DNA from: Escherichia coli
GTDB taxonomy: Bacteria > Pseudomonadota > Gammaproteobacteria > Enterobacterales > Enterobacteriaceae
NCBI RefSeq assembly: GCF_050920415.1
Contig: NZ_CP169309.1
Length of the DNA: 64,000 bases
Strand: one strand, 5' to 3'
Both the position numbers and the translations under genes were made by a program. The number at the start of each line of letters is the position of its first letter. The first letter of the stretch is position 1. This document shows, one piece after another, positions 249-56,252 of the stretch. The notes below the pieces were generated by a model. It was not told where the DNA came from, did not search any database, and saw nothing but the letters and a program-made list of their open reading frames with translations.

Positions 249-443
249 GCCGGATGTGGCGCACAAAACCAGCGGTTTCAACGGATTGTAGGCCTGATAA
301 GACGCGTCAAGCGTCGCATCAGGCATTTGGGCACGGCTGCCGGATGCGGCGTGAACGCCTTATCCAGCCTACAAAACCAGCATTTTCAACGGACTTGTAG
401 GCCTGATAAGACGCGTCAAGCGTCGCATCCGGCATTTGGGCTC
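249..443. repeat. BIME-type cluster of REP (repetitive extragenic palindromic) elements between convergent ssuB and pepN
   Basis: Seen directly: two near-identical ~70-bp direct copies (approx 262-340 and 371-440) each containing the palindrome GCCTGATAAGACGCGTCAAGCGTCGCATC(A/C)GGC, plus a third REP-like palindrome GCCGGATGCGGCGTGAACGCCTTATCCAGCCTAC at approx 339-372; these match the enterobacterial REP consensus as I recall it. Confidence 0.85.
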
Positions 444-9888: not shown

Positions 9889-10437
9889 CTACCAGTGCCG
9901 TGCTGGCCCGGTATCAATATGCACAAAGTTACTACGTGGGTAATATCCTACACCACCTGCGCGCATAGATAACGCGGCTTTGCGAATATTGCTTAACGCG
10001 ATACCTTCAATGTGGAAATCCATCGCCTGGCCTTTAGTGTGATAGCTTTTCTTCGCTACTCCACGGCTGCGGGCGCGTAGTTCATTGTTGGTATCAATGG
10101 AACGATAACCGGAAATGAGTTGCACCGGTTTGCGGGTGCCTAACAACCCTTGCAGGCGATACAACTGGTCGAATAATCCTGGGTCGATGGACTTTATTTT
10201 GTTCGCGCGGTAATCGCGGAAAAAATGGTTAAGTTTTGCCAATTCTTCCTGAATATAGCCTCTGCCATCGAAAAACTCCGCTTTGATTGACTCTCCGGTA
10301 TGAAGATTATTGAGTGTCAAAATGCGCGGGCGTGGGGTCGAGAGTGTTGCAAACGCCGGGGTCGGCAGGATGGCGGCACCGAGTGCAACGCCACCAAGCG
10401 CCAGCAGTTTGCGGCGATTAGCGTCGAATTTGTCCAT
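9889..10437 (-). CDS. mepK: Periplasmic murein endopeptidase MepK (YcbK), Tat-exported, peptidase M15-like
   Basis: ORF track 9889..10446 begins at a TTG; start chosen at the ATG at 10437 (MDKFDANRRKLLALGG), giving 182 aa with a twin-arginine signal. Confidence 0.85.
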   Translation of the reverse strand: MDKFDANRRKLLALGGVALGAAILPTPAFATLSTPRPRILTLNNLHTGESIKAEFFDGRGYIQEELAKLNHFFRDYRANKIKSIDPGLFDQLYRLQGLLGTRKPVQLISGYRSIDTNNELRARSRGVAKKSYHTKGQAMDFHIEGIALSNIRKAALSMRAGGVGYYPRSNFVHIDTGPARHW

Positions 10438-10617
10438 GATAATCAAGTCTACAGGTCAATGTTATCGTTTATATGCACTTCTGGCGCACAAGAGGCACCT
10501 TAACCGCCCGTAAAGCAGACGTCAAGATGACTCAACCCCAGCAGTGACGGGGGCTGCAGAGAAGCGCCCCCGATCATGCTAATTATTACGACAACTGATT
10601 TCCCCGAACTGCTTCAT

Positions 10618-12465
10618 TTACCTGATTAATTGTTCCGCTTTCGATACGATTTGCGAGCTGGATCGCGCAGGCAGATCATAATTGTAAATATCTGTACGAT
10701 ACTGGGTACGACCATCTGCACCAACAAAGGCCGTCAGATAGAAGAGATTCACCGGAATCGACTGCCGAATATTGACGTAACGCGTATCGCCCTGCTTCAG
10801 CGCATCAGAAATACGTTTGTCATTCCAGCCTGCATCCTGCAACAGCATATTCGCCAGATCGGAAGCTTTATTCACTCGTACACAGCCTGAGCTCAATGCG
10901 CGTGTATCACGCTTGAACAGATTGTGGTTCGGCGTGTCATGCAAATAAATGGCCTCTGAACTCGGCATATTGAATTTATAGCGCCCCAGCGAGTTCCGTG
11001 GGCCTGGAGCCTGCTGGAAGCGGAACGGTAAATTCGAGGCCGTGATTGTAGACCAGTCAACCTGCCACGGATCAATCGCCTCCCTGCTGTTCCAACCGCG
11101 CATCACCGTATAGCCATGGCTTTCGAGATATCCCGGATCGTTGCGCACTTTCGGCAGAATATCTTTGCGTGCCAGAGTTGGTGGTACATTCCACGGCGGG
11201 TTTACCACCACGTTGTTAAGGGCACTGCTCATCATTGGCGTTTTGCGATCGGGGCGACCGACAATGACTCGCGAATCCAGCACCTGATTGCCGTTCTGAT
11301 AGTAGACCAGCGAATAGGCCGGAATGTTAACCATGATCCCGGTAGAAAGCTCTGTTGGCAGCAAGCGCAATCGCTGGATGTTGAGTGCCAACACGCCAGC
11401 ACGCTGGGCGGGCGTTACGTTTAACCAGTCACGCGTTGCCGGGCCAATAGCACCATCTGCCCCCAATCCTTGCCATGCCTGAAAACGTTTAACGGCTTCC
11501 ACCAGTTCATTATCGTAGGCGGCACGAACGACAGGCGCAGGTTTACTACGAGACGTAGTTTGCTTGTCCATCGGCTTAGTTTCTGCTGTTTCAACAGTAA
11601 CAGCGGATGGGCTGACTACCGCGTCAGTTGGCGTGTCATCGCCAGGTAGCGTAATTTTCGGCCCCCCGTCCAGCATGCCTGTACGCTGCAATATTTCGCG
11701 CAACGCCGGTACGTCGTTACTCCACTGCCCTGGGCGCAACGTTGCTTTGCCGGTCAGTTGGGGCCACGGTTTGGTGTCACTGAGTAAGGCCAGTAAAGAT
11801 TCATGCATCGCCGCATATTGCGGATGCTGCGGTGCCAGTCCTGCAACAAACGTCGGCAATTGACCTTTATCCAGCGCCAGCTGCCATTGGTTAATCACCG
11901 AGAGCGGCGGCGTGGAAAGCGCATAAGGTTTACTGCTGTATAACCAGCGAGTGCCTTTGACTGGAATATTTGCGATGAAATGGAGATAGCCCATCATCGC
12001 ATCAGAGAGCACCACATCGCGTGCCATCCCGTTAATACCAGGATCGGTCAGCAACTCTACCCATTTATTAAACTGCGGCTGGAAACCGGCAATCGCCACT
12101 TCTGCCAGCTGTTGCTGGAAGGCTTTAACAGCATCACGGTTTTCCCACATGGGTTGCATATCGCGTGCGGCATACAACAGTTGAAGCTGGTTAAGATAAA
12201 CCGGCTTATAGCCTGCAGGTAATTGAGATTCGATTTGCGTGCGGGCTTTTTCTGCCGCACCTTCAGGCAATGGCTGGATCCCCGCCATTATTGCCGTGGC
12301 CTGCGCCTGCGGCAGTGCCTCGCCCTGTTCGCTGACAGCCACCGGGCTGTCGCCAGGGATTACTTCAGGCTCATCGGCCTGAGCATTGAACAGTGGAGCG
12401 AATGTTACGGCCACGCACAAACTGATTGCCGACAGCCGACGACCACACATCATATTAAGCAACAT
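10618..12465 (-). CDS. ldtD: L,D-transpeptidase LdtD (YcbB)
   Basis: 615-aa ORF; YkuD-type catalytic region [23 protein letters not shown] with the active-site Cys visible; N-terminal signal sequence. Confidence 0.9.
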
Positions 12466-12685
12466 CCCTTGCCCCCTGTTTTTATCATACTCTGAATAGC
12501 CAGGCTGTTATTTTACGACTTGCCTGTACAACGCCAATACTCACGAAAGTATGACGAGCAAGCCTGTTACTCATCAGGCTTATCTTCAGTATATAAACGC
12601 CGATACGTTTTTACATAACCTAATGTAAAGAAGTTTAAAGAAAAGCGCGCCAGAATGTGGCACTTTTTTAGTGCAGAAACGGAGT

Positions 12686-12719
12686 TTTCAGAAACAGGAA
12701 AGGCGGCATCGCTGCCGCC
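12686..12719 (-). terminator. Candidate rho-independent terminator downstream of mukB
   Basis: Seen directly: on the minus strand, hairpin GGCGGCAGCGATGCCGCC followed by a T-rich tract (TTTCCTGTTTCTG) just after the mukB stop. Confidence 0.6.
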
Positions 12720-12725
12720 TCAATC

Positions 12726-15700
12726 TTAACTCGCCTGGGAAGGCGCTTCGTCAGTTCCTGGAAGCGTTTCAGGGAGTTGCGGTGCAAAACCACGCAGACC
12801 GACTACGTGAACGTGTTCGGTATTCTGGAAGACTTTACGCACCAGTTTATAGGTGGTGCCTTTTTCCGGGCTGATATTTTCCGGCGCTGCGATGATGAGC
12901 TGCATTTGCAAACGCTCACACAATTCAAACAGCGTGGCGATGGAACGGGCATCCAGTCGCGCTGCTTCATCAAGGAACAGCAGACGGCAAGGAGAGATAT
13001 CTTTACCGCGCAAGCGGCGAGATTCATCTTCCCAACTCTGTACCACCATCACCAGAATCGACATACCGGTACCAATAGCCTCACCGGTCGACAATGCACC
13101 AGACTCCGCGCGCAACCAGCCATCGGAACCACGGTTAACCTCAACTTCCATTTCAAGATAGTTACGGTAATCCAGCAGTTCTTCACCGATGGTCTGCGGC
13201 GTGCGCTGCCCCATATCAATCTGCGGATTAAGGCGCTGATACAGTTTCGCCAGCGCTTCCGAGAAGGTCAGACGGTTGCTGTTAAACAGATCCTGATGTT
13301 GTTCGTGCTGTTCAGAGAGCACATCCAGCAGCATGGCGTGCGTTTCACGCACGTTCACGTTGAGGCGCACGCTGTTCACCTGACCGAACGATACGTTCTG
13401 CAAGCCCTGGTTGAGCATACGGATACGGTTCTGCTCGCGCTGAATAGTTTTACGGATGATGTTCGCCACGCTGCGGGAACTGATCGCCAGTTTCTGTTCG
13501 CGGGACGTTAACTCTTCAGTCAGACGGCTAAGTTCGATCTCCATCTGCTCGATAGCTTCAACCGGATCATCGGTACGAATAATATCCTGACGAATACGCT
13601 CGCGCAGATGCTGATAAACCGCCACGAAGAACTGAATTTTACGTTCCGGACGTTTTGGATCTTCCGACATACGCAGCACGTCGCGCAGATGTTCGTTATC
13701 CGCTACCGCGAGACGCAACGCACCCAACGCCTTATCCGACATGGAACGCAAATCATCAGCGGAGAGATAAGCCAGCTCACGACGGTGTAAGCGGCGCTCA
13801 ACACCGTTATCTTTCACCATGCGCATCACTGCACACCAGCCCGCTTTCGCGGTCACTACCTGCTCGCGCATCTCAAAGTAATCACGCTCCAGCTTGCGCA
13901 GTTTGCGGGTCAGGTTGTCCATCTCCGCTTCGCAGAAGGTAAGCGCTTTTTCCAGTTGGTTGCGACGTGAACGGTTATTGCTCAGCTGCGCATGTAACTC
14001 ATCACGGCGAATACGCGCCCGCTCTTCTGCCCCGCTATCAGCACGCACGCCGATATCCTGCAATTCACGTTGCAGATCGTTGAGTAGCTCTTTTTTGGTG
14101 TCATACGAACTTTTCAGCGAAGCCAGTACCTGATTGTACTGACTTAACTGCGCGGCGTGTCCGCGCAACGCTTCACGAGCGCGGGTACGCTCCGCTTCCG
14201 CCTGTTCCAGACGTTCACGCAGTTTTTCGTTGAGATCGCTGTTACCGCTAAGCATTTCTGCCGAGTCAGAGTAGCTAAAGTGCGCACGACGCTGCACCAC
14301 TTCCGTCAGGGCAAACGCCTGCTGACGGGCATCGCGCTGCATCTGCTGAGAGTACGCGTAATCTTCTTTTAACTGTTCGAACTGTTCCGGGTCACTCTGC
14401 AATACCGAAACGATCGGTTCCAGTTTCGCCAGTTGATTACCGAACTGCTGAACAAAACGCGCGGCTTCCTGGGCTTCATCCAGACGTTCGCGGATTTCAT
14501 CGACGCGATCCGCCAGGCTGTCATCAGCCAACAGGTTGAGACGCGGCAGAATGCGGTTCAGCGCCGTAACGCCTTCTTTCGCCTGCTCAAACTGAATACG
14601 CTGCTGCTGGTTATCATTTTCATGATTACTCAACGCCCGCTCCAGTTCGACGCGACGGCTGTTCAGTTGACGGATTTCGGCTTCCGGATCAGACTCAAAC
14701 GCCACCGCCAGATGGCTGCCGATAAAGCGGCTGAACGCCTGATGCAGACGCTGGGTTTTCTGTACATCAAAGGAGAGCGTGGCGAAGCGTTCGGAAAGCA
14801 CTTCACGCTCGGCATGGAGGCTTTCGATGCGGCTTTCGCGCGCCGCGCGTCCAAACAGCGGCACTTCCGGGAAACGTGAATAACGCCACTGACGATCGGC
14901 GATTTTCACCACTACCGCTTTTTCCAGCTCATCAACGCTGAACACGCTGTCATCGAATGACTGCGGATCCCCTTCGATCAGATAGAGATCTTCCGGGCAA
15001 TCGGTCAAGCCTTCCAGGTGTTCGGTTACCTGTGACAGATCTGGCACCACGATGGCGTGGCGTGACGGGCCATACAGCGCCGAGAAGTACGGCGCATCTT
15101 CCAGGCTAACATCGTCATAAATTTCTGACAGCAACACGCCGCCAAAACGCTCCGCCAGCGCATTCAGACGCTGGTCTTCAGAACCACCTGGCTGGCTTAA
15201 ACGTTCGATCTCTTCATCGACGGCGTTTTTGCGCGCGCCTACTTCATCGCGTTCAACAATCGCCTCGCGCTCACGCTCCAGCAACTGTTGCAGAAATTCG
15301 GTGACATCCTGGCTTGAGGAGAATTCTTCGCCGCACTGTTCGCTCAACTGGTTGAGACTGTTTTGCGCTGCCAGCCAAACCGGCGCACGCTGCATCAAAC
15401 TCTGAATGCGAGACTGCAGCTGTTCCTGCTCCTGGCGCAGTGCCATACGCTCTTCGCGGGCGTTAGACACGCTATTGGAAAGAGAGGCAATGCGCGCTTC
15501 CAGCTCCTGATGCAGAGCTTCCAGTTCATCAATATCAAAATTCTTGCCCTGACGTTTGCAGAAATCTGCCAGCAGACGCTCAGCTTCTTGCTGTTCGCGC
15601 AGACGCTGTTCCAGTTCGCTTAAGCGCATTCGCAACGGCTGAACCTGCTCTGCCAGGTGACGCTGATCGACCCCTTCGCGCAGCAGTTCGCGAGCGACAT

Positions 15701-17186
15701 CCCACGCCTCGTTACGCGCCAGCGGGCCGTTGATTGCCACCACCAGCTGATAAGCCTGCTCAAACTGGCTGTGCGCGGTTTGCGCCATGCTCATTTTCTG
15801 CTCAAGAGAGAGCATTTTTTCAGTCGCTTCCAGCTCTTTCGCCTGGAAGGTTTCCAGCCATTCGGCGGCGCTGTCGGCGGTTAAGTCCGGCAGATGGCAC
15901 AGTTCTTTGGCACGATTAAGCGCAGCAATCGCCTGGTTATACTGGATCGCGCGCGTTTGCTGGACGTCCAGCGCCTGCTGGTAGTCAGCAAGCTGGCTTT
16001 TCAGCTCGTCCACTTCCAGTTCGGCAGCTTCCGCACGAGCCTCATTCTCTTCCTGGCGTTCGATGGCTTCTGCCACCACTTCGTTTTGCTCTTCCAGACG
16101 GATCTGCAGCTCATCGAGATCCGCTTCGTAGCGTTCGATCTTCTCCTGCTGACGCAGTGCGGTTTGCACCAGGTTCAGGTGATCGCTGGCCGCCTGATAA
16201 TCCGCTTCCAGATCGCCTTCGGCACCGTTGTGCTCTGCCAGTTCACGCGCCATATCGACGTGTTTGTACTGCTCAGCCGCCAGTTGCTGACGCGAAGTGT
16301 GAAGCTCACGACGAAACTCCAGCGCTTTATCCAGGTGAACACGGCGCTCGTTGGCGTGGCGCATGTAGTCCGCCGCCACGTAGTTAGTCGCTTCGCTGAT
16401 CAGATGCTTGAACAAGTCACGGTCAGACTGGGTAACACGAATCGCTTCCAGCGTCATACGGTTTTCACGCAGCGCCGCTTCCATGTCCTGAAACGCTTTG
16501 CGCACGCCGCTATTTTCTGGCAACAGGTAGTCGCGCAGAGAACGGGTGATGGCGCTGGAAATCCCGCCGTACAGCGAAGCTTCAATCAGACGATAGAATT
16601 TACTACGATCAGACGCTGAGCGCAGACGACGTGCGATGATGCCCAGATCGAACATCAGCGAGTGGTAATCGGTAATGGAGTTGAACTGCTTAAACTGCAC
16701 GCCTTCCATCGCTTCGAGCTTGTCTTTCAGCTCGTTAAGCGGGAGCACGCGCGCCTGACGTTCATTCAGAGTTTCGGTCACCAGTTGTGTCGGCTGCACC
16801 GACATCGGCAAGCCCTGAATGGCAAATGGTTTGATATCAACTTTACGATCGCGCCCGGCAACCTGTTGCAGACGCACGCCGACCACCACGCGCTGATGGC
16901 GCGAGTTAATGGTGTCGAGCATCGAATAGCAGACACCCGCTTTCAGCTTACCGTGCAGACCTTTATCGCGCGAACCGCTGGTGGCCCCGGCTTCCGTGGT
17001 GTTACGGAAATGCAGCAGGGTCAGGTCGGGGATCAGCGCCGTAACGAACGCCGCCATGGTAGTAGATTTACCCGCACCGTTACCACCGGAGAGCGTCGTA
17101 ACCAGCTCATCGAGGTCAAAAGTTCGGGCAAAAAAGCCGTTCCAGTTAATCAGCGTCAGTGAGCGAAATTTACCGCGTTCAATCAT
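12726..17186 (-). CDS. mukB: Chromosome partition protein MukB (SMC-like condensin ATPase)
   Basis: 1486-aa ORF; Walker [10 protein letters not shown] near the N-terminus; long coiled-coil-type sequence; length matches MukB as recalled. Confidence 0.97.
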
Positions 17187-17890
17187 TATTCTTCCTCTCC
17201 GCTATCTGGCTGATTCTCTTCGGTTTCATCGTTGAGTTGCAGATGATTTTCAATCGGCATTGCTTCGCCATCACGAATCAGGCGACGCTGTGCTTCACGG
17301 GGATCGTCGCCAGCACGCACATCGGCTCCGAAGCGGAACACCGATTCGGTAATGCGGAACTTGCTGCTGTCGTGGCCCATAAACCACACCATGCCTAAAC
17401 GACGCAGACGGTTGAGCGAAGAACGTACTTTCTCCTGCAACTTCTGCCGGTCAACGTCTGAACCGGTTGAACGGTTGTTCACCAGTTTCAGCAGTTTCGC
17501 TTCATCGGCCAGGGTGAGCAGTTCATCGTACAGTTCCTGCTGGGTGAAAATCCCCTCATTCGCCAGCCGTTCCGGGCTGAGATAAAGATAACAGAGGATT
17601 TTCCCGACCATCATATCCAGTTCCGACAAGACGGAACGAGGGATAATAGTGGTGGAACGTGGGCGTAAATAGAAGAACCCCTCCGGTGCGCGAATAAGCT
17701 CAACGTTATAACGCGCGTAAAATTCTTCCAGATATTCCTGAAAATCCATCAGGAATGCATGATTATCCAGTTCGTCAAGGCCAATATGGCGGCCTGAACG
17801 TAAGGCGCTATCCAGCGCCGGAAATAACGGATTCGCCAGCGCCTGCGCCAGCTTAACCGGCATCACTTGTTCAATATTTGTCGATGACAT
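17186..17890 (-). CDS. mukE: Chromosome partition protein MukE
   Basis: ORF track 17186..17917; start chosen at the ATG at 17890 ([14 protein letters not shown]), giving 234 aa; overlaps the mukF 3' end and abuts the mukB start, consistent with translational coupling. Confidence 0.88.
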
Positions 17891-19193
17891 GCGCCTGTAC
17901 CTTGGCTCCGTAATCATTAATCGGCTGCCATTTCGCTGGCAGTCCGGTGAAATCTGCTTGCGCTACGCCAAGACGTACCGCCTGATCAATAACAATGCGC
18001 GCAACGTCAAAGTGACGTGCACGCGGATACTGTGACAGATATTCGCGTACCACCAGACCAAGATCCAACGGCACTTGTCTGGTTTTGTACACGGCAAGTT
18101 GTTCTTCGATGATCGCCGCCAGCTGTTCGCGGATCTCGTTAAACTCTTCGTACTCCAGATCCTCAGGAAGTTCCCCAGTCACCTCTTCATCGCGCAGTGC
18201 CATCTCTTCGTCACGCATATCCAGCAGACGATCGGCATTGGCATAAGTTAGCGCCCACGGTTCATCAAAATAGGTTTGTACCGACTGACGTAACCGCTGA
18301 GCAAAGACGCGGTTTTTATCCATATCGATAGCGGTACGAATAAATTTGTGTACGTGGCGGTCGTAGCCAATCCATAAGTCGATGGATTGCTGGCCCCAGC
18401 TGATAATACGGTCAAGTTTGCTTTGCAGATCGAACACCAGACGATCGACGAAATGCAGATCATCATGAGTCATCGTCGCATCCTGAATGCGTAACAGATT
18501 AGCCTGCAATTTATCACCTGCCGCTTCCAGCGTATCCTGCAATTCACGCAGCGTTCCGGAAGTTTCCGAAAGCAACAATTCGCAGCTGGAAATCGCCGCC
18601 CGCCAGTCTTTGTTCAGCAACTGGGCGATATCATCTTTCACCTGCTGCTGCTGTTCGTCCATCAGACGTTGCGTCAGGTCGATGCTGTCGAAAATTTCTG
18701 CTACCGAATATTTCAGTGGCGCATAGACATTACGGTGCCAGTGAAACTCATCACCGCCCTCTTCGGCGGCATCTGCCGCGCGTTTCAGTTCGCCCGCCAC
18801 AATCGACAACTGCATAGAAAGGCGCAGCGTCGAAAACTCGCGCTGACGGATGTAGTAATCGGTAATACCGATGCCAAGCGGCGTCAGACGGTAAATTGCG
18901 TTCCCTTCAGCCTGCTCGCTGGTAAAGCGGTTCAGCAGACGTTGACGCACCATGTCGTTGATCGCGTTGTTGGCGCGCACGCCGATGGTTTCGCTGGTTT
19001 GCTCAAACGCATCACTCACATGGCGGAATGCATCCACCAGCTCGCCTTCACTCATCTCACCATCCAGACGCTCGCCGTTCAGCGTGGCAACTGCCAGCAG
19101 AAAAGAGAGTCGGTCTACCGGCAGCGAGATGGAGAAGTCATTTTTTCTGGCCCAGGCAACCAGTTCGGGGACTGTCTGGGAAAATTCACTCAT
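17871..19193 (-). CDS. mukF: Chromosome partition protein MukF (kleisin)
   Basis: 440-aa ORF, N-terminus [20 protein letters not shown]; immediately upstream of mukE-mukB. Confidence 0.95.
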
Positions 19194-19975
19194 ACTTTAT
19201 CCTTGCTCTGCGGTTTGCGCGCGGTGACATGAATATAACGCCCCAGGGTAATATACGGTTCCTGACGGCAATAACGCGTTTCTAATTCAAGTAATGCTTC
19301 ATAGCAGTCGCGCTGCTGGTGCTTCTCGCGCAGGTAATCATGAAACACGCGAACGCCGGTCTTACCCATAATTTGCCAACCAGCTTCTTCCAGCCACAGA
19401 TAAACCTGCGCCGGGTCGCGTGGATAATCTGGCGAAAGCGTCCGTTTTTTCTTTTTCGGCATTCCCGCCTGCACGTAATCAAAATTCCCGGCGACCATGT
19501 TATGCATCAGCAAGCCGTGCGCATTGTAGAACATTAACGACAACACACCGCCTGGACGTAACACTGACCACAGGGTCTGCAATACGCTGCGGGGATCGGC
19601 CACCCACTCGAGCACCGCATGGAACAATATCAGATCAACGGGCGTTTCCAAATGCGAAGCAACATCCTGAGCGGCGCAATGTATAAATTGCATGTTGTCG
19701 CTCACACCTTTTGCTTCTGCCGCCTGTTTTGCGCGGTCGATCATCTGCGCTGAAAGATCGCATAAAATGACCTGATGCCCACGCTCGGCCATTTTGATTG
19801 CGGTCTGCCCTTCTCCACCGCCAGCATCCAGCACACGCAGTTTTTGCGAGCCCATTTCCGCCAGCACGCGATCGAGATCCTGCCACAGAATAGCCTGTCG
19901 AAGCTGCCCTTTGGTGGTGCCGTAAATGTTACGGGAAAACTTTTCCGCAATATCATCAAAATTGCGATCCTGCAT
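19190..19975 (-). CDS. cmoM: SAM-dependent methyltransferase CmoM (SmtA), tRNA cmo5U methyl ester formation
   Basis: ORF track 19190..19987; start chosen at the ATG at 19975 ([13 protein letters not shown]); SAM-binding motif VLDAGGGEG visible; stop overlaps the mukF start (ATGA). Confidence 0.88.
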
Positions 19976-20110
19976 TGCTTTCTCCACCGGTTGGCTAAGA
20001 CGTTTTCTGATAAAGACGCTATTTTGTCACAGCCACGGCGAGAATGAACCCGTCTGGTGTAATATCGCTGGCGATCCCTTGCTATATGGTCAAAAAAGGA
20101 ACCAGAAAGG

Positions 20111-20890
20111 ATGCTTTTTACACTGAAAAAAGTGATTGGCAATATGTTGCTGCCACTTCCGCTGATGTTGCTGATTATTGGCGCTGGCCTGGCGCTGCTG
20201 TGGTTTAGCCGTTTTCAAAAAACCGGGAAGATTTTTATTAGCATTGGGTGGCTGGCGCTCTTGTTATTGAGTTTGCAACCGATAGCCGACCGCCTGCTGC
20301 GTCCCATCGAAAGCACCTATCCGACATGGAATAATTCGCAAAAAGTGGACTATATCGTGGTGCTCGGAGGTGGTTATACCTGGAACCCGCAGTGGGCACC
20401 GAGCTCTAATTTAATCAATAACAGTCTGCCACGCCTGAATGAAGGTATCCGCTTATGGCGCGAAAATCCGGGATCAAAACTGATCTTCACGGGAGGCGTA
20501 GCAAAAACCAATACGGTGAGTACAGCCGAAGTAGGTGCCCGAGTTGCGCAATCGCTGGGCGTGCCGCGCGAGCAAATTATCACTCTGGATTTGCCAAAAG
20601 ATACCGAAGAAGAAGCTGCGGCAGTGAAACAGGCAATTGGTGACGCACCTTTCCTGCTGGTGACCTCCGCATCACATCTGCCGCGGGCGATGATCTTTTT
20701 TCAGCAGGAAGGGTTAAATCCGCTACCAGCCCCGGCGAATCAGTTGGCCATCGACTCGCCGCTTAATCCGTGGGAACGAGCTATCCCTTCTCCAGTCTGG
20801 TTAATGCATAGCGATCGTGTTGGATATGAAACGCTTGGCCGCATCTGGCAGTGGCTGAAAGGTTCGTCAGGCGAGCCACGGCAAGAGTGA
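20111..20890 (+). CDS. elyC: Envelope biogenesis factor ElyC (YcbC), DUF218 family inner-membrane protein
   Basis: 259-aa ORF with an N-terminal hydrophobic segment; divergent from cmoM as in K-12. Confidence 0.85.
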   Translation: MLFTLKKVIGNMLLPLPLMLLIIGAGLALLWFSRFQKTGKIFISIGWLALLLLSLQPIADRLLRPIESTYPTWNNSQKVDYIVVLGGGYTWNPQWAPSSNLINNSLPRLNEGIRLWRENPGSKLIFTGGVAKTNTVSTAEVGARVAQSLGVPREQIITLDLPKDTEEEAAAVKQAIGDAPFLLVTSASHLPRAMIFFQQEGLNPLPAPANQLAIDSPLNPWERAIPSPVWLMHSDRVGYETLGRIWQWLKGSSGEPRQE

Positions 20891-21913: not shown

Positions 21914-22839
<926 letters not shown>

Positions 22840-24159: not shown

Positions 24160-25146
24160 CTAGTTGCCAGAAGCCAGCGAGGTTAGTTGCGCAAGCAGTT
24201 TCGCTGGTTCATCGCCTGAAAGCTGTGCGTCAACAGGCAAATACCACCAATTATCATCTGCAAAGGCCCGGCATTTCACCGCATCTTTTTCAGTCATAAC
24301 TAGCGTTTGCCCGTCGCTTACCAACGCGCTGACATCCGTATAATTCAAAGACTGATGATCGGCCAGTGGTACACATTTTTCCGGTTGTACGCCGCACATC
24401 TTCAGCGTGGCAAAAAAGCGCGGCGGATGCCCAATCCCCGCCATCGCCACCACATGTTCAAGTTGAGCAACGTCACAACGCGTACCGGTACGTAAATTCA
24501 CCGCCTGCCCCGGCAGCAGATGCATGGGGATTTCACCGCTGCGGGGGACACCGCCGTTGACGATTACCGCATCAACCGACTTTAAGCGCCCCGCTCGCTC
24601 ACGCATTGGCCCCGCCGGCAACCACCAGCCATTGCCAAAGCGACGCACGCCATCAATAACGACGATTTCAACATCACGCGCCAGACGATAATGCTGTAAA
24701 CCGTCGTCGGTTACGATGATCTGCACATCAGGGTGTTGCGCCAGAATGGCTTTTACCGCATCAGAACGCACGGGAGAAACCGCAACAGGCGCGCCAGTGC
24801 GTTGATAAATCAACACAGGTTCATCACCCGCCTGTGCTGTGGTGGTATCTACCGACAATAACAGCGGATACGATTCAGCCTTACCGCCATATCCCCGGGA
24901 CACGACTCCCACGCGAATACCGCGCTGTTGCAACTGTTCCACCAGCCAGACAACGACCGGAGTTTTTCCGTTGCCGCCAGCGGTGAGATTACCAACCACG
25001 ACAACCGGTACGGGGGCACGCCAGGCGCGCTTCAGTTTTAGTTTATAGCAAAGACGGATCGCGCCACTCACCAGACCATACAACCAGGAGAGTGGCAGCA
25101 ATAGCCGCCACAAAGGGGATTCACCAGACCAGATTTTTTCGATCAT
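24160..25146 (-). CDS. lpxK: Tetraacyldisaccharide 4'-kinase (lipid A biosynthesis)
   Basis: 328-aa ORF; P-loop [12 protein letters not shown] visible; start overlaps the msbA stop. Confidence 0.94.
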
Positions 25147-26891
25147 TGGCCAAACTGCATTTTGTGAAGTTGCGCGTAAACGCCACGGTGCTCAAGCAAA
25201 TCGTTATGCGTACCGCGTTCCACAATGACACCATCCTCGACGACCACGATTTCGTCTGCCTTTTCAATGGTAGACAAGCGGTGGGCAATCACCAGAGAGG
25301 TACGGTTTTTCTGCAACTCATCCAGTGCCGCCTGAATCGCACGTTCAGATTCGGTATCCAGCGCCGAGGTAGCTTCGTCCAGAATCAGAATCGGGCTATC
25401 ACGCAACAAGGCTCGAGCGATGGCAATACGCTGACGCTGACCGCCAGAGAGCAGCACGCCGTTTTCACCAATCACTGTATCGAGACCGTTATCCATCTTA
25501 TTGATGAAGTCCATGGCGTAGGCCATACGCGCCGCTTCTTCAATTTGCTCACGGCTGTACTGTTCTGTCCGTGCGTAAGCAATGTTGTTGGCAACCGTAT
25601 CGTTAAACAGATGGACATTCTGCGACACCAGAGCAACCTGGTTACGTAAAGACGCCAGGGTATACTCGCGCAGATCGTGACCATCCATCAGGATTTCGCC
25701 TTCATCAATATCGTAAAAACGTGTGATTAGGCTGGCGATGGTTGATTTACCTGAACCAGAGCGTCCAACCAGAGCAACCGTCTTCCCTGCCGGAATTTTC
25801 AGGTTGATGTTACGCAATGCGGGTACATCACGTCCCGGATAAGTAAAGGTGACATTGCGGAATTCTACGTCGCCAGTCGCACGCTCGATCACGCGCTTAC
25901 CTTCGTCTTTCTCCTGCTCACTGTCCAGAATGGTAAACAGCGTCTGACAAGCCGCCATACCGCGCTGGAACTGGGCGTTAACGTTGGTCAGCGATTTCAG
26001 CGGACGCATCAGTGCAATCATTGAAGAGAAAACAACGGTAATCGTACCGGCAGTCAGGCTATCCATGACGCTAGGGAAGCTCGCCGCATACAGAACAAAC
26101 GCCAGCGCTAAAGAGGCGATCAACTGAATGATCGGATCAGAGATGGAAGAGGCTGAAACCATTTTCATCCCCTGAAGACGCATTCGGTTACTGACTTTAT
26201 CGAAGCGTTTCGTTTCCACCTCCTGACCACCAAAAATCAATACTTCTTTGTGGCCCTTCAGCATTTGTTCTGCGCTGGTGGTCACCTGCCCCATGGTGTT
26301 CTGCATGTTTTTACTGATGTTGCGAAAACGCTTCGATACAACGCGAATCGCAATCGAAACAATCGGTGCCAGCACAATCAAAATGATCGACAGTTGCCAA
26401 CTGTAATAGAACATCATGATGAACAGGCCGATGATCGACGCACCTTCACGCACAACAGTAATCAGTGCGCCGGAAGAAGAAGAAGCAACCTGTTCGGAAT
26501 CGTAGGTGATACGTGACAACAGCGTACCCGTTGACTGTTTGTCAAAGAATGAAACTGGCATTCCCATCATGTGACCAAACAGGCGGCGACGCATGGTCAT
26601 TACCACCTTTCCTGATACCCAGGAGATACAGTAGCTGGAGACATAGCTGGTGATACCACGTAAAATCATCAGCCCGATCACCACCAGCGGCATCCACACC
26701 AGCACGGAGCGATCTGTTTTACCAAAGCCATCATCAAGAAGTGGCTTAAGGAGCGATAACATGAAGGTATCGCTGGCTGCGTTGAGGATTAACGCTACGC
26801 CCGCCACGATCAGACCCGCTTTAAAAGGCGCAATGGTTGGCCACAGTCGGCGGAACGTCTGCCACGTAGAGAGATCTTTGTCGTTATGCAT
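25143..26891 (-). CDS. msbA: Lipid A / LPS flippase MsbA (ABC exporter, fused permease-ATPase)
   Basis: 582-aa ORF; Walker [13 protein letters not shown] signature LSGGQRQR and six N-terminal TM segments visible. Confidence 0.97.
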
Positions 26892-26927: not shown

Positions 26928-29192
26928 CTACCCGTTATCCACTGGCACGCCAAACCACTGATGATACCAACGAGGTAAAATTTGCTCCCTGAGGCTGCTA
27001 ATCCGCCAGCCTTGCGCTGAAAAATCGACCGTTACTTGCCCCTGATGAGGAGTATCAAGCCACGTATAACCCTGTTGTTGATAGCGATGCTTAACTTTGT
27101 TAGAGGGCAGTCGCCATGCGTTATAGCGCGATGCCGATGCGAGTGCCACTTTTCCATTCACTCGCTGAATTAATGGCAACGATGATGAGGTATTACTGCC
27201 ATGGTGAGGTACCTGAAGTAATGTTGCCTGCATTTGCTGCCAGTAACGGCTTAGCATCTTTTGTTCAGCGGGGGCTTCAATATCACCGGTTAGAAGAATG
27301 CTATTCGTCCCGTCATCAATCTTAACCACACAGGAATGGTTATTTCCTTTATCGTTGCTACCTTGTAAAGGCCAGTGCGCGCTGAAACGCAATCCTTGCC
27401 ATTGCCACGCTTCGCCACGCACACAGGGCTGATGATGTTCCCAGCTTAAAGGGCTTCTGACCCATAACGTCGGCCAGGCTCGTAATATCGAGTCCAGCCC
27501 TCCCCGATGATCCAGATGTTCATGACTCAAAATGACGCCTTCTGGTTCAAGATTATGCCAGCGTAGCCAGGGGATAATCAGTTGTTGCCCACTATCCCCC
27601 TCCGGCCAGGCCAGTCCGGTGTCATAGAGAATCGCTTTACCGTTTCGCGCAATGACCATTGCCAGCCCTTGCCCGACATCAAGCATGTACACCTGCCACG
27701 CGTCAGGCCGAGGTTTTTGCCACAGCGGCCAGCACATCAGCAAGCCTCCAGCCACACACATTGCCGGCAACGCTCGCCAGGCGTTTAATCGCCATACCAC
27801 CAGTAAGAACCATGGGGAAAATGTTAGCCATTGCCAACGTTCAGCAATGTTGATCCACCCTTCCGGCAAACTCTTTAACCCCCAGAAAAGTAAAGCCAAA
27901 GACCGGTCGGCAAGAAACCATACTCCTTGTTCTACGATTAACGGCCCGCTTAAATGCATAACCATCGCTGCGAGGATCAACGGAACCGTGATAAATGTCA
28001 CCAGGGGAATTGCAAATAGGTTTGCAATAAACGAGGTCAGACTAATGCCATGAAATATGACGATTTGCACGGGCATAAGCAGGAGGGTGATTCCCAGTTG
28101 CAGATGGATGAGGGAAACAACCGCGCGCAATACCGGCGGCAGCTGCCACTCCGGACAGGGAAACCACTGATACCAAAAAATCAGTGCCGCGACCGCAGCG
28201 GCAGAGAGCCATAAACTTTGCGAGAGAATGGCAACAGGATCCATCAGCAAAATTGCCGCCAGACAACATATCCATACATCCCAGCCACTCCATTGTCGTC
28301 CACTTAACTTAAGCATTCCCCAAATGGCAAGCGCCACCACGGTACGCAATGCAGGAGGTTGCATTCCCGTTAGCCAGGCGTAAAAAGCAGCACAGCAGAT
28401 TCCACCAATTAATGGCATTTGCCAGTGGATCCAGCACCCAGGCAGAAAAACTTGCCCACCGCGAATGAGTCCTGCAGCCAGCAACGCCGCAAAAGCGATG
28501 TGCAATCCTGATATCGCCATTAAATGCGCCGTTCCAGTATCACGCATGATATTTTTGATTTCTTTGGGGACGGATAACCGTTCCCCCATACCTAATCCAA
28601 GAATAACCGCGTTCCACATATAGGGTTGCAGCGTTGTTTGTAGTGACGCCAGATACTGTGCACGCAGGCTACAATTCGGTTCAATGACACTTGCCTGCAG
28701 AAAACGCCCGGTGAGCGGTTGATGCTGGGCAATGGCATAACGCTGGCTATCAAAGCCGCCATCATTAAGTTGGCCATGAACTGCACGAACTTTGAGTTTC
28801 ATTGACCATACTTGTCCGGCACAAACCGCTTGCGGAAGATATTCGCCATACAGTACGAGGCCTGGCGCAGGGAATATACGTCGACCTTGTAGATGAGTAA
28901 TTTGACCGTAATGAGTGGTCATGCCGTCAGTAGCAATGATCTCAACAATTGCATCCTGCGTCGAGCCAGTTAAGGTTTCTCCTGCCCACAAAATTTGCTT
29001 TGCCGCTGATATGCCCCAAAGAAAAAACAGCAACGTCAGCGCGATATAACGGACGGCTTTAACACGAATAAATGCCAGTACGCAGGCGAAGATAGTCAGA
29101 AGCACAAGGGTTACTGTCCCTGGCAATTGGGGCAAAATCAGCAACGGAAAAATTCCGCAAATTATGCATACTCCGACTGTCGTTATTTTCAT
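26928..29192 (-). CDS. ycaI: ComEC/Rec2-family inner-membrane protein with C-terminal metallo-beta-lactamase domain (YcaI)
   Basis: ORF track 26928..29222; start chosen at the ATG at 29192 (MKITTVGVCIICGIF), giving 754 aa; polytopic membrane N-terminal part and C-terminal SHEHLDHRGG (HxHxDH) motif. Confidence 0.88.
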   Translation of the reverse strand: MKITTVGVCIICGIFPLLILPQLPGTVTLVLLTIFACVLAFIRVKAVRYIALTLLFFLWGISAAKQILWAGETLTGSTQDAIVEIIATDGMTTHYGQITHLQGRRIFPAPGLVLYGEYLPQAVCAGQVWSMKLKVRAVHGQLNDGGFDSQRYAIAQHQPLTGRFLQASVIEPNCSLRAQYLASLQTTLQPYMWNAVILGLGMGERLSVPKEIKNIMRDTGTAHLMAISGLHIAFAALLAAGLIRGGQVFLPGCWIHWQMPLIGGICCAAFYAWLTGMQPPALRTVVALAIWGMLKLSGRQWSGWDVWICCLAAILLMDPVAILSQSLWLSAAAVAALIFWYQWFPCPEWQLPPVLRAVVSLIHLQLGITLLLMPVQIVIFHGISLTSFIANLFAIPLVTFITVPLILAAMVMHLSGPLIVEQGVWFLADRSLALLFWGLKSLPEGWINIAERWQWLTFSPWFLLVVWRLNAWRALPAMCVAGGLLMCWPLWQKPRPDAWQVYMLDVGQGLAMVIARNGKAILYDTGLAWPEGDSGQQLIIPWLRWHNLEPEGVILSHEHLDHRGGLDSILRAWPTLWVRSPLSWEHHQPCVRGEAWQWQGLRFSAHWPLQGSNDKGNNHSCVVKIDDGTNSILLTGDIEAPAEQKMLSRYWQQMQATLLQVPHHGSNTSSSLPLIQRVNGKVALASASRYNAWRLPSNKVKHRYQQQGYTWLDTPHQGQVTVDFSAQGWRISSLREQILPRWYHQWFGVPVDNG

Positions 29193-29397
29193 GCACCCTC
29201 CCTGTTTATAGAAAGTGTGCAACTTTGTTGAATGGTTGTCTGGTGGAAGTTTTGCGTTCCCCGAGGCACGTTCAGAAGAATTTAACGACAGGGTGAAAAC
29301 TGCTCAAAACTCTGCGAGGCAGCTTCCAGTTCCAGATTAGAGAAATGAAAAAAGCACCCGACAGGTGCTTTTCTCGCGTTCAAGTTTGAGTAAAAAC

Positions 29398-48615: not shown

Positions 48616-49479
48616 TTAACTTGCGACGGCCATCCCCACGGTCATATGCAAACCATAGAATACGCCACGACCGATTAATTCCCCTGCCAGAAGCAGAATG
48701 AATGATACAGAAAGTAGCGGAACTGCAGGCTGATAACCTTTTAGCTGTGGGGCAATCCACAAGCACAGGGCAACAGCCAAAAGTACGATACGCCAGGACA
48801 TCAGCGCACCATAGTCCGGCACCAGCGCTGCAGCCTGCTGCACAGAGCTATGAATAGTCGCCAGCTCTGCGCCCTGCATCACTGACACCACGCCACTCAC
48901 TACCAGGGCCAGTACAGAAATAGCTGGCAGCAGACGCATCGCCCAGCCATCGACGCCAGCCAGACTCAGTAACAGGTAACCCAGTAACGGGCCGCCCATG
49001 AACATCGTCAGGAAGAAGCCCATCGGTGTCCAGATGCTGTACCAGGTGGGTACGGTATCGATGCTGTTATAAACGCGCACCATCATCCAGACAAAGACTA
49101 CGCCAAGAACCATCGTCACCACCAGCCACAGCGTACGCAGTGCTGGCGACAGCTTTTTCAGTATTGCCAGCACCCAACCGATGCCACCAACGGCAAAAAA
49201 GATCGAACCGCTGGCGATTTCGTTACTGAGTGCTGAAGCCCCTACCCGGTTGAGCGAGTTAAAAGCGCGCATCGGCGAACCAAGATGGAGCATAGAGGCG
49301 ATAAAGCCAATACCCATCAGCACCCATAAGCCAAACATACAGGCAATAACACGCTGCTGGGCTTCTGCTCGCAGGTCGCCTTTGAGCAGCGCCAAAGCCA
49401 GAACGATAAAACCACCTGCTACACATTGCCCGAAGACCGTGAAGATCATCAGCGGCCATTCATGCCATCCACTTCCCAT
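48616..49479 (-). CDS. dmsC: DMSO reductase membrane anchor subunit
   Basis: ORF track 48616..49542; start chosen at the ATG at 49479 (MGSGWHEWPLMIFTV), giving 287 aa; 8-TM type hydrophobic protein. Confidence 0.9.
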   Translation of the reverse strand: MGSGWHEWPLMIFTVFGQCVAGGFIVLALALLKGDLRAEAQQRVIACMFGLWVLMGIGFIASMLHLGSPMRAFNSLNRVGASALSNEIASGSIFFAVGGIGWVLAILKKLSPALRTLWLVVTMVLGVVFVWMMVRVYNSIDTVPTWYSIWTPMGFFLTMFMGGPLLGYLLLSLAGVDGWAMRLLPAISVLALVVSGVVSVMQGAELATIHSSVQQAAALVPDYGALMSWRIVLLAVALCLWIAPQLKGYQPAVPLLSVSFILLLAGELIGRGVFYGLHMTVGMAVAS

Positions 49480-49480
49480 C

Positions 49481-50098
49481 TCACACCTCCTTCGGGTTTG
49501 CCAGATAGCCAGTGGTATCCCCGGTCGGGCGGCTGTTGGCATTGGGTTTGATCACAATATTCGGTTTGGTAAAGTGAGCTCGCGGCAACGGCGCAACAGC
49601 CGCCAAATCGCCATGTTTTTTACGCAGCTCGTCGATAGGGCCGAAATCCAGCGCCCGCAGCGGGCAGGATTCTACGCAGATCGGTTTTTTCCCCTCCGCA
49701 ACACGGTCATAACAACCATCGCATTTGGTCATATGGCCTTTCGTTTCGTTATATTGCGGTGCGCCGTACGGGCAAGCCATATGGCAGTAACGGCAGCCAA
49801 TGCATACATCTTCATCGACCACAACAAAACCATCTTCACGTTTATGCATCGCACCGCTCGGGCAGACTTTAGTACAAGCCGGATCTTCGCAGTGGTTACA
49901 TGAAATCGACAGATAGTAGGCAAACACGTTCTGATGCCAGACACCGTTATCTTCCTGCCAGTCACCGCCAGCATATTCATAAATGCGGCGGAAGCTGACT
50001 TCCGGCGTCAGATCTTTATAGTCTTTACAGGCCAGCTCGCAGGTTTTGCAACCGGTGCAACGGCTGGAATCAATAAAAAATCCATACTGGGTTGTCAT
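49481..50098 (-). CDS. dmsB: DMSO reductase iron-sulfur subunit (4x [4Fe-4S] ferredoxin)
   Basis: 205-aa ORF with four Cys clusters (e.g. CTGCKTCELAC, CNHCEDPACTKVCP, CIGCRYCHMACP). Confidence 0.96.
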   Translation of the reverse strand: MTTQYGFFIDSSRCTGCKTCELACKDYKDLTPEVSFRRIYEYAGGDWQEDNGVWHQNVFAYYLSISCNHCEDPACTKVCPSGAMHKREDGFVVVDEDVCIGCRYCHMACPYGAPQYNETKGHMTKCDGCYDRVAEGKKPICVESCPLRALDFGPIDELRKKHGDLAAVAPLPRAHFTKPNIVIKPNANSRPTGDTTGYLANPKEV

Positions 50099-50108
50099 CG
50101 GTTACTCC

Positions 50109-52553: not shown

Positions 52554-52723
52554 AATGGCTCACTCAAGCTTGCTCACGATTGATTCCAGTAACAAACCGT
52601 ATTGTGTAATTATTTCTATAGCAGGTCGCTATATAGGTTTGTATACATCGAATGATTTGAAAATCAAAGAGATAGGCAGATTTTCACTCGAAAGTAGTAT
52701 TACGTGTAAGTGAGGAGTAATTA

Positions 52724-52737
52724 TTGTTCGGTATCAA
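52724..52737 (-). promoter_or_regulatory. Candidate FNR box of the dmsABC promoter (minus-strand TTGATaccgAACAA)
   Basis: Seen directly: TTGTTcggtATCAA on the plus strand, a near-consensus FNR site (TTGAT-N4-ATCAA) in the serS-dmsA intergenic region; the dms operon is known to be FNR-dependent. The distance to the dmsA ATG (~170 bp) implies a long leader. Confidence 0.45.
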
Positions 52738-52745
52738 AGGGAGAC

Positions 52746-52771
52746 AAAAAAAGCGCCCGAAGGCGCTTTTT
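52746..52771 (-). terminator. Candidate rho-independent terminator downstream of serS (symmetric, possibly bidirectional)
   Basis: Seen directly: AAAAAAAGCGCCCGAAGGCGCTTTTTAG, a GC stem flanked by A- and T-runs, just after the serS stop. Confidence 0.7.
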
Positions 52772-52791
52772 AGATTCAGAAAAATTGGGTA

Positions 52792-54105
<1,314 letters not shown>

Positions 54106-54174
54106 TTAAATGGGAGATGTGGCCACAGCCTGCGACCACAGGGATACAGTAACAACATTACCGCAACGATAACA

Positions 54175-55518
54175 TTAACGGTAGCGTTTTATGGGGCTAT
54201 TTTGATCCTGTTCAGCCAGCCAGGCGAGCTTTTCGCCAATCTTGCCTTCAAGGCCCCTGTTTGTCGGGAAATAATAGCGTGTTTGTGCTATTTCCGGCGG
54301 GAAGTAAACCTCACCGGCAGCATAAGCGTTTGCTTCATCATGAGCATAACGATATTCCTGACTGTAGCCCATTTCCTTCATTAATTTTGTCGGCGCATTA
54401 CGCAAATGAACCGGCACGTCATAATCCGGACGTTCGCGAGCATCGGCCAGCGCGGCTTTAAATGCGGTATAGACAGCGTTACTTTTTGGCGCGCAGGCCA
54501 GGTAAACAATCGCCTGAGCAATGGCACGTTCACCTTCAGCCGGACCAACTCGAGTAAAGCAATCCCAGGCCGCAATAGCCACCTGCATCGCCCGTGGGTC
54601 AGCATTACCCACATCTTCAGACGCAATCGCCAGGCAGCGACGCGCGACATATAACGGATCTCCACCGGCGGTAATAATTCGCGCATACCAGTACAGCGCC
54701 GCATCGGGTGCGCTCCCACGCACCGATTTATGCAGTGCAGAGATCAGATCGTAAAAGCGATCGCCTTTGTTATCAAAGCGGGCGCTACGCTCACCGGCGA
54801 TTTCGGTCAGTAATTCAGGCTTCAGGACCCGCTTACCGCTATCATCGACTTCGGCCATATCCGCCATCATTTCCAGCGTATTTAACGCCCGGCGCGCGTC
54901 GCCATTCACCAGTTCAGCAATGGCGCGTCGTGTTTCATCTGGCAGAACAATATCCTGACCACCATAGCCACGGGTTTTGTCTTCCATCGCCTGAGTCAGT
55001 ACTTGCTCAATATCCTCTGTACTGAGGGATTTCAGCAGATAGACACGGGCACGGGAAAGCAGCGCCGAATTAAGCTCAAACGACGGGTTTTCAGTCGTCG
55101 CACCAATAAAAGTGATGGTGCCGTCTTCAATATGTGGCAGAAATGCATCCTGCTGGCTTTTGTTGAAACGGTGAACTTCGTCAACAAAAAGAATAGTGCG
55201 GCGACCAGCATTGCGGTTTTGCCGAGCGCGCTCGATCGCCTCGCGAATCTCTTTCACGCCAGAGGTGACGGCAGAAATACGTTCCACATCAGCGTTCGCA
55301 TAACGGGCTATAACTTCAGCGAGGGTTGTTTTGCCGGTACCCGGTGGCCCCCAGAGGATCATAGAATGCAAATGCCCAGCTTCGATAGCGCGCGGCAATG
55401 GCTTCCCGGCAGCCAGCAAATGTTGCTGGCCGATATACTGTGCTAAATTTTCTGGCCGCATACGCGCGGCCAGAGGTTGAAAAGTATTATCCGAAAAATC
55501 GAGCGACAGATTGCTCAC
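54175..55518 (-). CDS. rarA: Replication-associated recombination protein A (AAA+ ATPase, MgsA/RarA)
   Basis: 447-aa ORF; Walker [10 protein letters not shown] and Walker [10 protein letters not shown] visible. Confidence 0.95.
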
Positions 55519-55528
55519 TCAGGTGCCT

Positions 55529-56140: not shown

Positions 56141-56252
56141 CATTGTTCCTCAAATTACGTCACTCCCGATCGGGAGTTCCCTCTACTCTCTATTCCAGGC
56201 TAATAATCAGCTTGAGGAAAGAAGAAAATACTGAATTTTCAGTTGATAGAGT

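Follow-up and report, generated by a model that had tools for sequence, protein, structure and literature searches.

Compact overlapping junctions in the cmoM-mukF-mukE-mukB, msbA-lpxK and ycaR-kdsB units of Escherichia coli

Genes and junctions in the window

[quoted passage not shown] It is followed by mukF (17871-19193; 440 aa, the kleisin of MukBEF), mukE (17186-17890; 234 aa) and mukB (12726-17186; 1486 aa, an SMC-like ATPase). SmtA is said to have been renamed CmoM by Sakai et al. in 2016. All four genes are called by PGAP, cmoM, mukF and mukB also directly as open reading frames, and a profile search identified their products well above the NCBIfam equivalog cut-offs: CmoM with 504 bits against a cut-off of 366 (NF008264, over residues 1-261 of 261), MukF with 845 against 407 (NF003615, 1-440 of 440), MukE with 412 against 250 (NF003602, profile position 2 falling on residue 4) and MukB with 2646 against 699 (NF003422). 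The other two units on this strand are msbA (25143-26891) with lpxK (24160-25146) and ycaR (22657-22839) with kdsB (21914-22660), and all eight proteins encoded at the five junctions exceed their cut-offs. The record used as annotation reference, a co-linear E. coli sequence of 99.1% identity annotated by RefSeq/PGAP, agrees at all five junctions.

Of the 35 pairs of neighbouring genes on the same strand in the window, five overlap. This share is close to the roughly 15% that PMC6728339 gives for co-directional pairs in most prokaryotic groups, and the window is thus typical and not enriched in overlaps. In E. coli, -4 and -1 are the most common spacings, and 707 of the 2,987 unidirectional pairs fall within -8 to +6. 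From cmoM to mukB, all on one strand, the distances are -4, -20 and -1, which leaves no space for intergenic terminators or promoters. In a scan for consensus promoters and terminators, the matches were not above those in shuffled sequence, and the sole convincing one was a terminator-like hairpin of 9 pairs (6 of them G-C) just 3' of the mukB stop (12700-12721, minus strand), detected by this consensus scan alone. An Rfam search of all three operons gave no family match.

Of 5426 complete E. coli genomes, 5425 carry the cmoM-mukF-mukE-mukB locus with at least 95% identity. The allele in the window is a rarer one: over a 3-kb stretch, just 8 genomes match it with 99% identity or more. The gene order is kept in those Enterobacteriaceae loci that extend far enough upstream and also in Erwinia, Rahnella, Mixta and Ca. 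Symbiodolus. The comparisons across Enterobacteriaceae species below are based on 80 loci, whose upstream reach ends short of msbA/lpxK. Very probably, the five overlaps are the ordinary compact cistron junctions of three known units, cmoM-mukF-mukE-mukB, (ycaI-)msbA-lpxK and ycaR-kdsB.

Conservation of the junctions

At the cmoM/mukF junction, the ATGA at 19190-19193 is read on the minus strand, with the mukF ATG at 19193-19191 and the cmoM TGA at 19192-19190, and the 4-nt overlap that the original prediction had placed there agrees with the open reading frames and with RefSeq/PGAP. The cmoM start itself is the ATG at 19975, which is preceded by a GGAG Shine-Dalgarno (SD) motif, and a GTG at 19987 has none. 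For mukF, an AAGGA SD sequence lies inside the final cmoM codons (19200-19204, minus strand; anti-SD duplex -5.2 kcal/mol), and in 77 sequences positions -11 to -7 are invariant and the flanks variable. The ATGA is lineage-specific and not conserved: across Enterobacteriaceae species the spacing is +3 in 34, -8 in 32 and -4 in 10, and the CmoM C-terminus ends in three different frames among close relatives. The predicted fold of 131 nt of RNA spanning the mukF start is not significant (z = +0.79).

Such alternation is what would be expected if overlaps simply arose from the turnover of stop and start codons and from genome compaction, being selectively neutral and without effect on expression. 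Overlap length classes have reportedly been explained by codon turnover in a simulation study, and also the mukF/mukE spacing varies: two other MukE lineages have +34 and +85, and further ones +1, -8 and -32. Neutrality is nevertheless an unlikely explanation. The -20 geometry of mukF/mukE is found in 79 of 79 Enterobacteriaceae species (and in Erwinia, Rahnella, Mixta and Ca. Symbiodolus as well), and the ATGA of ycaR/kdsB in all 73 species loci that carry both genes, despite a median difference of 37% at mukF third codon positions between the window and other species. The region around the embedded mukE start is under strong synonymous constraint, and even at cmoM/mukF every variant stays within -8 to +3. 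At mukE/mukB the genes overlap in all 79 species, by -1 in 72, by -4 in 3 and by -8 in 4. Conservation of the geometry thus goes well beyond drift at mukF/mukE, ycaR/kdsB and mukE/mukB, with cmoM/mukF as the exception.

The mukE/mukB junction is a TAATG (17184-17188, minus strand), in which the mukE TAA (17188-17186) and the mukB ATG (17186-17184) share the base 17186. The original prediction had the position right, whereas its description of the mukE stop as abutting the mukB start is inexact, the two overlapping by 1 nt. The SD sequence for mukB, GGAGAGGAAGA (17190-17200, minus strand; -7.2 kcal/mol), lies in the codons for the acidic C-terminus of MukE, and it is conserved across species as GGAGGAAGA/GGAGAGGAAGA.

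The ATGA junctions of msbA/lpxK (25143-25146, a 4-nt overlap) and ycaR/kdsB (22657-22660) are likewise where they had been predicted, sequence and annotation being in agreement. The lpxK start has no SD (duplex just -1.5 kcal/mol) and that of kdsB is weak (-3.2 kcal/mol). Both the -4 spacing of msbA/lpxK and the ycaR/kdsB junction are found also in Rahnella and Mixta, which for msbA/lpxK are the two further genera compared. To our knowledge, no complex formation is known for CmoM or for the msbA/lpxK and ycaR/kdsB partners.

The mukF/mukE overlap and the start of MukE

The overlap of mukF and mukE, originally given as about 20 nt, comprises exactly 20 nt of dual-coding sequence (17871-17890, minus strand) between the mukE ATG at 17890-17888 and the mukF TGA at 17873-17871, provided that MukE starts at ATG 17890. 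Directly upstream of this ATG (SD duplex -5.8 kcal/mol) lies a near-invariant block of 25 nt at the 3' end of mukF, GATTACGGAGCCAAGGTACAGGCGC (17891-17915, minus strand), which contains a GGAG and an AAGG motif and is the probable ribosome-binding region of mukE. Together with the ATG, the block forms a 28-mer that 69 species loci share without a mismatch. In mukF, codons 427-433 have seven successive third positions that are invariant in 76 species, compared with 4.2% of degenerate codons gene-wide, and codons 428-433 read GGAGCCAAGG. This region has the lowest variability of all 431 ten-codon windows of mukF (0.04 bit, the mean being 0.93 bit), and the 24 nt preceding ATG 17890 are the mukF stretch under the strongest synonymous constraint. 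From their sequences, the putative ribosome-binding sites of mukF, mukE and mukB each lie within the 3' end of the gene upstream, and that of mukE is strongly constrained at synonymous sites.

The mukF/mukE overlap is the only one exposed to a reassignment of start codons, which the original prediction had named as the change that would remove the overlaps, and the PDB entries include MukE of both 234 aa and 225 aa. A start at ATG 17863 would give the 225-aa protein, leave a gap of 7 nt between mukF and mukE instead of an overlap, and make the 234-aa annotation over-extended. This form is used by the two PDB entries 7V8P and 3RPU (the latter as a tag followed by MPVK...), Met10 of the long form is invariant among the aligned Enterobacterales sequences, and several distant MukE homologues have been called with shorter N-termini. 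Nevertheless, the shorter start is highly improbable, as ATG 17863 has no SD (-1.2 kcal/mol) and the constrained block is 28-52 nt upstream of it, too distant to serve that start. Ca. Symbiodolus keeps the -20 ATG and has no Met at position 10, Ser2, Asn5 and Glu7 of the long form are invariant in an alignment of 15 sequences, and the NCBIfam profile and the PDB chains of Photorhabdus and H. ducreyi open at an N-terminus of the 234-aa type. The length of 234 aa is that of the 3EUH and 9GMB chains (residue 82 is Ile in the window and Leu in 3EUH). It is therefore most likely, judging from these comparisons, that MukE starts at ATG 17890, and with this start the 20-nt overlap would be real and stay. 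The first ATG of the open reading frame, at 17917 (243 aa), was rejected as a start: it has no SD (-1.8 kcal/mol), and 14 of 76 species have ACG in its place and still show the downstream constraint. A search of the TRAINSPOTTER supplements for the MukE N-terminus found zero muk entries.

It is conceivable, if rather improbable, that the GATTACGGAGCCAAGGTACAGGCGC block and the dual-coding overlap go beyond an ordinary embedded ribosome-binding site and form a dedicated control element through which the MukE:MukF ratio required for the 4:4:2 complex is set or regulated, possibly with a second element in the first 15 codons of mukF, where constraint is similar to that in the mukE start block. 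Such an element may be a standby site with a small hairpin that is opened by ribosomes translating mukF, or it may be the target of a regulator. Masking of the start sites by RNA structure was considered and rejected: as at the mukF start, the predicted fold of 121 nt of RNA spanning the mukE start is not significant (z = -1.0), and because the sequence is near-invariant there is nothing to test for covariation.

Protein output across the junctions

The original prediction took the overlaps to indicate a fixed stoichiometry and proposed a comparison of ribosome-profiling data across the junctions. Such a comparison can be made with the synthesis rates of Li et al. 2014 as given in Dataset EV6 of Mori 2021 (for the three muk junctions and msbA/lpxK), and it speaks against equal output. 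The rates per generation are 69 for CmoM, 204 for MukF, 263 for MukE and 356 for MukB, with downstream/upstream ratios of 2.96 (mukF/cmoM), 1.29 (mukE/mukF) and 1.35 (mukB/mukE), whereas MsbA with 242 and LpxK with 57 show a 4-fold drop, to 0.24. The output of neighbouring overlapped genes is thus unequal and not equimolar. Also the complex itself is not 1:1:1 but B4:E4:F2, that is 2:2:1 (PMC6765140). For B:E:F, profiling gives 1.75:1.29:1 and mass spectrometry 3.3:3.0:1 (MukE:MukF 1.3 versus 3.0), so that the methods disagree in size, but both rank the subunits as expected and their values lie on either side of 2:2:1. An internal promoter in cmoM is another possible cause of MukF exceeding CmoM; the consensus scan, which is weak evidence, found none there.

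These rates bear on the view that strict termination-reinitiation coupling produces equimolar subunits, with the downstream protein made solely by ribosomes that have finished the upstream gene. The ATGA and TAATG geometry is present, four of five tested native E. coli ATGA pairs, as examples of short -4 and -1 overlaps, showed strict translational coupling (PMC6728339), genes for subunits of one complex have such overlaps more often than others (PMC10666635), and lpxK, having no SD and 0.24 of the MsbA rate, is compatible with inefficient reinitiation. If reinitiation were the sole source, however, the downstream rate should not exceed the upstream one, which holds for msbA to lpxK only; as each muk gene exceeds its upstream neighbour, pure termination-reinitiation cannot be the sole source there. 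The 4:4:2 composition of MukBEF contradicts equimolarity, the cmoM/mukF geometry is not conserved, and the -20 distance of mukF/mukE is outside the -8 to +10 for which reinitiation has been demonstrated (PMC10666635), a range into which the other four junctions fall. Strict coupling is thus very unlikely.

For the preferred reading as ordinary compact junctions, ribosomes that end the upstream gene would aid the next gene, either through reinitiation or because their passage prevents the embedded start from folding. For the muk genes, de novo initiation at the embedded SD sites would account for most of the downstream translation, because the output climbs from CmoM over MukF and MukE to MukB, and lpxK would be the gene most likely to need reinitiation after msbA for its translation. 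The overlaps may accordingly be expected to give ratios that are reproducible yet unequal, tuned by each start site, and would not enforce a 1:1 stoichiometry.

Relation to known operons and coupled genes

The operons, the overlaps and the general link between overlap and coupling are already known, being textbook knowledge or recently reviewed, and as a discovery they have little significance. The grouping of the genes in the original prediction is borne out by the literature: the smtA(cmoM)-mukF-mukE-mukB operon was described by Yamanaka in 1996, as cited in PMC4255302, a promoter replacement upstream of smtA gave more MukBEF, with the genes treated as a single promoter unit (PMC7163298), and also the ycaI-msbA-lpxK operon has been described (PMC3001078). 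An smtA-mukFEB operon has been predicted also in Vibrio fischeri. A literature search for translational coupling in mukFEB gave no match, and it brought up no experiment on any of the five junctions. More useful are three practical points. The comparative support for the 234-aa start of MukE is relevant since structural studies used both the 234-aa and the 225-aa form, any recoding or tagging of the mukF 3' end should allow for the constrained mukE start region, and an overlap does not mean equal output, as rates rise 3-fold across the ATGA of cmoM/mukF and fall 4-fold across that of msbA/lpxK.

Compared with the known E. coli smtA(cmoM)-mukF-mukE-mukB operon, the genes, their order, strand and lengths (261, 440, 234 and 1486 aa) are identical and nothing material differs, and the ycaI-msbA-lpxK and ycaR-kdsB transcription units have the same genes and the same ATGA junctions, without any difference found. 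Like the coupled pairs of Huber et al. 2019 and 2023, the pairs described here are co-directional with ATGA or TAATG junctions and an SD inside the upstream gene, and as in those systems some partners (MukF, MukE and MukB) share one complex. None of the five pairs was among those tested there; the 20-nt overlap of mukF/mukE lies outside their -8 to +10 class, and at the three muk junctions the downstream output exceeds the upstream one.

The overlapping junctions and their locus

Reading the minus strand directly confirms, with minor corrections, that the genes overlap at all five junctions and that these overlaps had been placed correctly. The cmoM stop and the mukF start share an ATGA (19193-19190), as do msbA and lpxK (25146-25143) and ycaR and kdsB (22660-22657), and the annotated mukE start ATG (17890-17888) and the mukF stop TGA (17873-17871) enclose an overlap of exactly 20 nt. 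Only mukE and mukB, which had been said to abut, actually overlap by one base, as the mukE stop TAA (17188-17186) and the mukB start ATG (17186-17184) form a TAATG.

The whole window is co-linear with its closest genome, strain N96 (NZ_CM169999.1), from which it differs by 565 mismatches and no indels, and therefore the PGAP coordinates of N96 carry over directly. The minus-strand genes are then mukB (12726-17186), mukE (17186-17890), mukF (17871-19193), cmoM (19190-19975), kdsB (21914-22660), ycaR (22657-22839), lpxK (24160-25146) and msbA (25143-26891), and all eight products pass the curated NCBIfam equivalog cut-offs at full length. The mismatches to N96 are clustered in regions 1-2000 (221 of the 565 lie within the first 2 kb), 10000-16000 and 50000-60000, which suggests recombination patches. 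Of 5426 complete E. coli genomes, 5425 contain the 3 kb from cmoM to mukE (17100-20100) with at least 95% identity, two with 100%; as at least 99% is reached in only 8 of the 5425, the allele is an uncommon one. MukE residue 82 is Ile in the window and Leu in the PDB 3EUH sequence.

The start codon of mukE

The only junction at real risk from a start reassignment, which would remove the overlap, is that of mukE. Its minus-strand ORF offers ATG 17917 (243 aa), ATG 17890 (234 aa) and ATG 17863 (225 aa), the last of which would put a 7-nt gap after mukF, and the E. coli MukE chains in the PDB differ: 3EUH and 9GMB contain 234 residues, 7V8P contains 225, and 3RPU has a tag followed by MPVK.... 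When the locus was compared among 79 Enterobacteriaceae species and several more distant lineages, the ATG equivalent to 17890 and its -20 geometry were found in 79 of 79 Enterobacteriaceae and also in Erwinia, Rahnella, Mixta and the insect symbiont Ca. Symbiodolus. In 14 of 76 species an ACG takes the place of the upstream ATG 17917, and as the MukE N-terminus of Ca. Symbiodolus (MSSITTENPPVE) has no Met at position 10, only the -20 ATG is usable there. Among the three candidates, SD-like motifs (GGAG, AAGG) precede ATG 17890 only, whose anti-SD duplex energy is -5.8 kcal/mol versus -1.8 for ATG 17917 and -1.2 for ATG 17863, and the long-form N-terminus is shared by the Photorhabdus and H. 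ducreyi MukE structures and by the NCBIfam MukE profile. Comparative and SD evidence thus favour ATG 17890, and on these sequence grounds it is very likely that the 20-nt mukF/mukE overlap stands.

Immediately 5' of this ATG lie mukF codons 427-433 (GAT TAC GGA GCC AAG GTA CAG), the third positions of which are invariant in 76 species, while gene-wide only 4.2% of the degenerate codons of mukF have an invariant third position. The mukE start stretch is the lowest of 431 ten-codon windows in mukF (0.04 bit versus a gene mean of 0.93 bit), and since codons 427-433 are not dual-coding, the constraint is suggestive of a mukE initiation region embedded there. Second in constraint within mukF are codons 2-15 (19149-19190, minus strand), with third positions almost invariant in 76 Enterobacteriaceae species; dual coding with cmoM is possible there for the first 8 nt only. 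Folding gave no significant RNA structure around the mukE start (z = -1.0) or the mukF start (z = +0.79); for codons 2-15, too, a stable fold is not predicted.

Conservation of the junctions

The ycaR/kdsB ATGA is present in 73 of 73 loci containing both genes, msbA/lpxK is at -4 also in Rahnella and Mixta, and mukE and mukB overlap in every one of the 79 species, mostly as TAATG (-4 in 3, -8 in 4). Between cmoM and mukF, 34 species have a spacing of +3, 32 have -8 and just 10 have -4, among them Escherichia, K. pneumoniae, Raoultella and Leclercia; these variants reflect three reading frames of the CmoM C-terminal tail. An invariant AAGGA motif lies 7 nt upstream of the mukF ATG. Junctions are thus tight as a rule, with the ATGA at cmoM/mukF being specific to certain lineages. 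Beyond Enterobacterales the mukF/mukE geometry has drifted more: the gap is +34 in L084 (4632-6738, 11452-12737) and +85 in L086 (129-2418), fetched loci of two distant metagenomic lineages with 69% and 57% MukE identity, the former without an upstream cmoM; it is +1 in Psittacicella, and two other distant lineages have overlaps of 8 and 32 nt. Both metagenomic loci have A-rich mukF/mukE spacers and retain the TAATG between mukE and mukB, and in L084 ParE and MazE/PIN toxin-antitoxin genes lie directly downstream of mukB.

Possible translational coupling and protein output

The mukB gene forms an operon with mukE and mukF that begins with smtA (Yamanaka 1996, as cited in PMC4255302); SmtA is the cmo5U34 methyltransferase CmoM (PMC4737166), and a promoter replacement upstream of smtA increases MukBEF (PMC7163298). 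Also ycaI-msbA-lpxK has been handled as an operon (PMC3001078). The ycaI ORF (26928-29222) reaches TTG 29222 (764 aa), and the annotated start is ATG 29192 (754 aa), with a strong SD (GGGAGGG, -11.6 kcal/mol). Rfam has no family within these operons; above the gathering score it places the sRNA STnc130 between dmsA and serS (52644-52778, plus strand, 138.8 bits) and naRNA4/CssrE between ssuB and pepN (291-369, minus strand, 82.2 bits).

The literature search found no coupling test for any of the five pairs. Of five native E. coli pairs with an ATGA junction, 4 have been reported as strictly coupled (PMC6728339), and coupling falls off sharply with distance, pairs at short distance being 4.5-fold enriched for complex subunits (PMC10666635). 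The original prediction of coupling with fixed stoichiometry can be compared with the ribosome-profiling synthesis of Li et al. 2014 (MG1655, glucose minimal medium), as carried in Dataset EV6 of Mori et al. 2021, where the values are copies times mass and were divided by the listed masses. Copies per generation are 69 for CmoM, 204 for MukF, 263 for MukE, 356 for MukB, 242 for MsbA, 57 for LpxK and 899 for KdsB. By these rates output increases 2.96-fold at cmoM/mukF, 1.29-fold at mukF/mukE and 1.35-fold at mukE/mukB, so reinitiation after the upstream stop cannot be its sole source. Part of the muk output must come from de novo initiation at embedded SD sites or, in the case of mukF, from an internal promoter; promoter- and terminator-like matches are at background level, except for a good hairpin directly after mukB. 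An equimolar stoichiometry is contradicted by these published rates, and mass-spectrometry fractions of CmoM:MukF:MukE:MukB (0.61:1:2.96:3.34; Mori et al. 2021) together with the MukB4:MukE4:MukF2 complex (PMC6765140) are compatible with a tuned, roughly proportional synthesis. The lpxK gene has no recognisable SD (-1.5 kcal/mol) and LpxK is synthesised at 0.24 of the MsbA rate in the same dataset, the pattern expected for reinitiation-dependent translation, which makes it the best candidate in the window. Coupling at these junctions is plausible, best supported at msbA/lpxK, and the interpretation as a whole is partly supported. Everything essential was already known and the cmoM/mukF ATGA is unconserved; mild novelty is confined to comparative findings, namely the backing for a MukE start that gives 234 aa, the strongly constrained mukE initiation block in mukF, and a second constrained stretch, mukF codons 2-15.

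Comparison with other junctions

The five junctions are the only overlaps among the 35 same-strand neighbour pairs of the window (14%). The share is about 15% in most prokaryotic groups (PMC6728339), and in E. coli a spacing of -4 is commonest, followed by -1 and -8, with 707 of 2,987 unidirectional pairs within -8 to +6 (PMC10666635), so the window is typical. Of its convergent pairs, elyC (plus strand) and ycbJ (minus strand) overlap by 24 nt at their annotated 3' ends (20867-20890; in Rahnella they lie 1 nt apart), and ycaN/ycaM have a 0-nt gap (44850/44851). Further tight junctions are dmsB/dmsC at +1 (49479-49481) and dmsA/dmsB (50098-50109) and lolA/rarA (55518-55529), both at +10; for E. 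coli this spacing has been described as the '+10' class.
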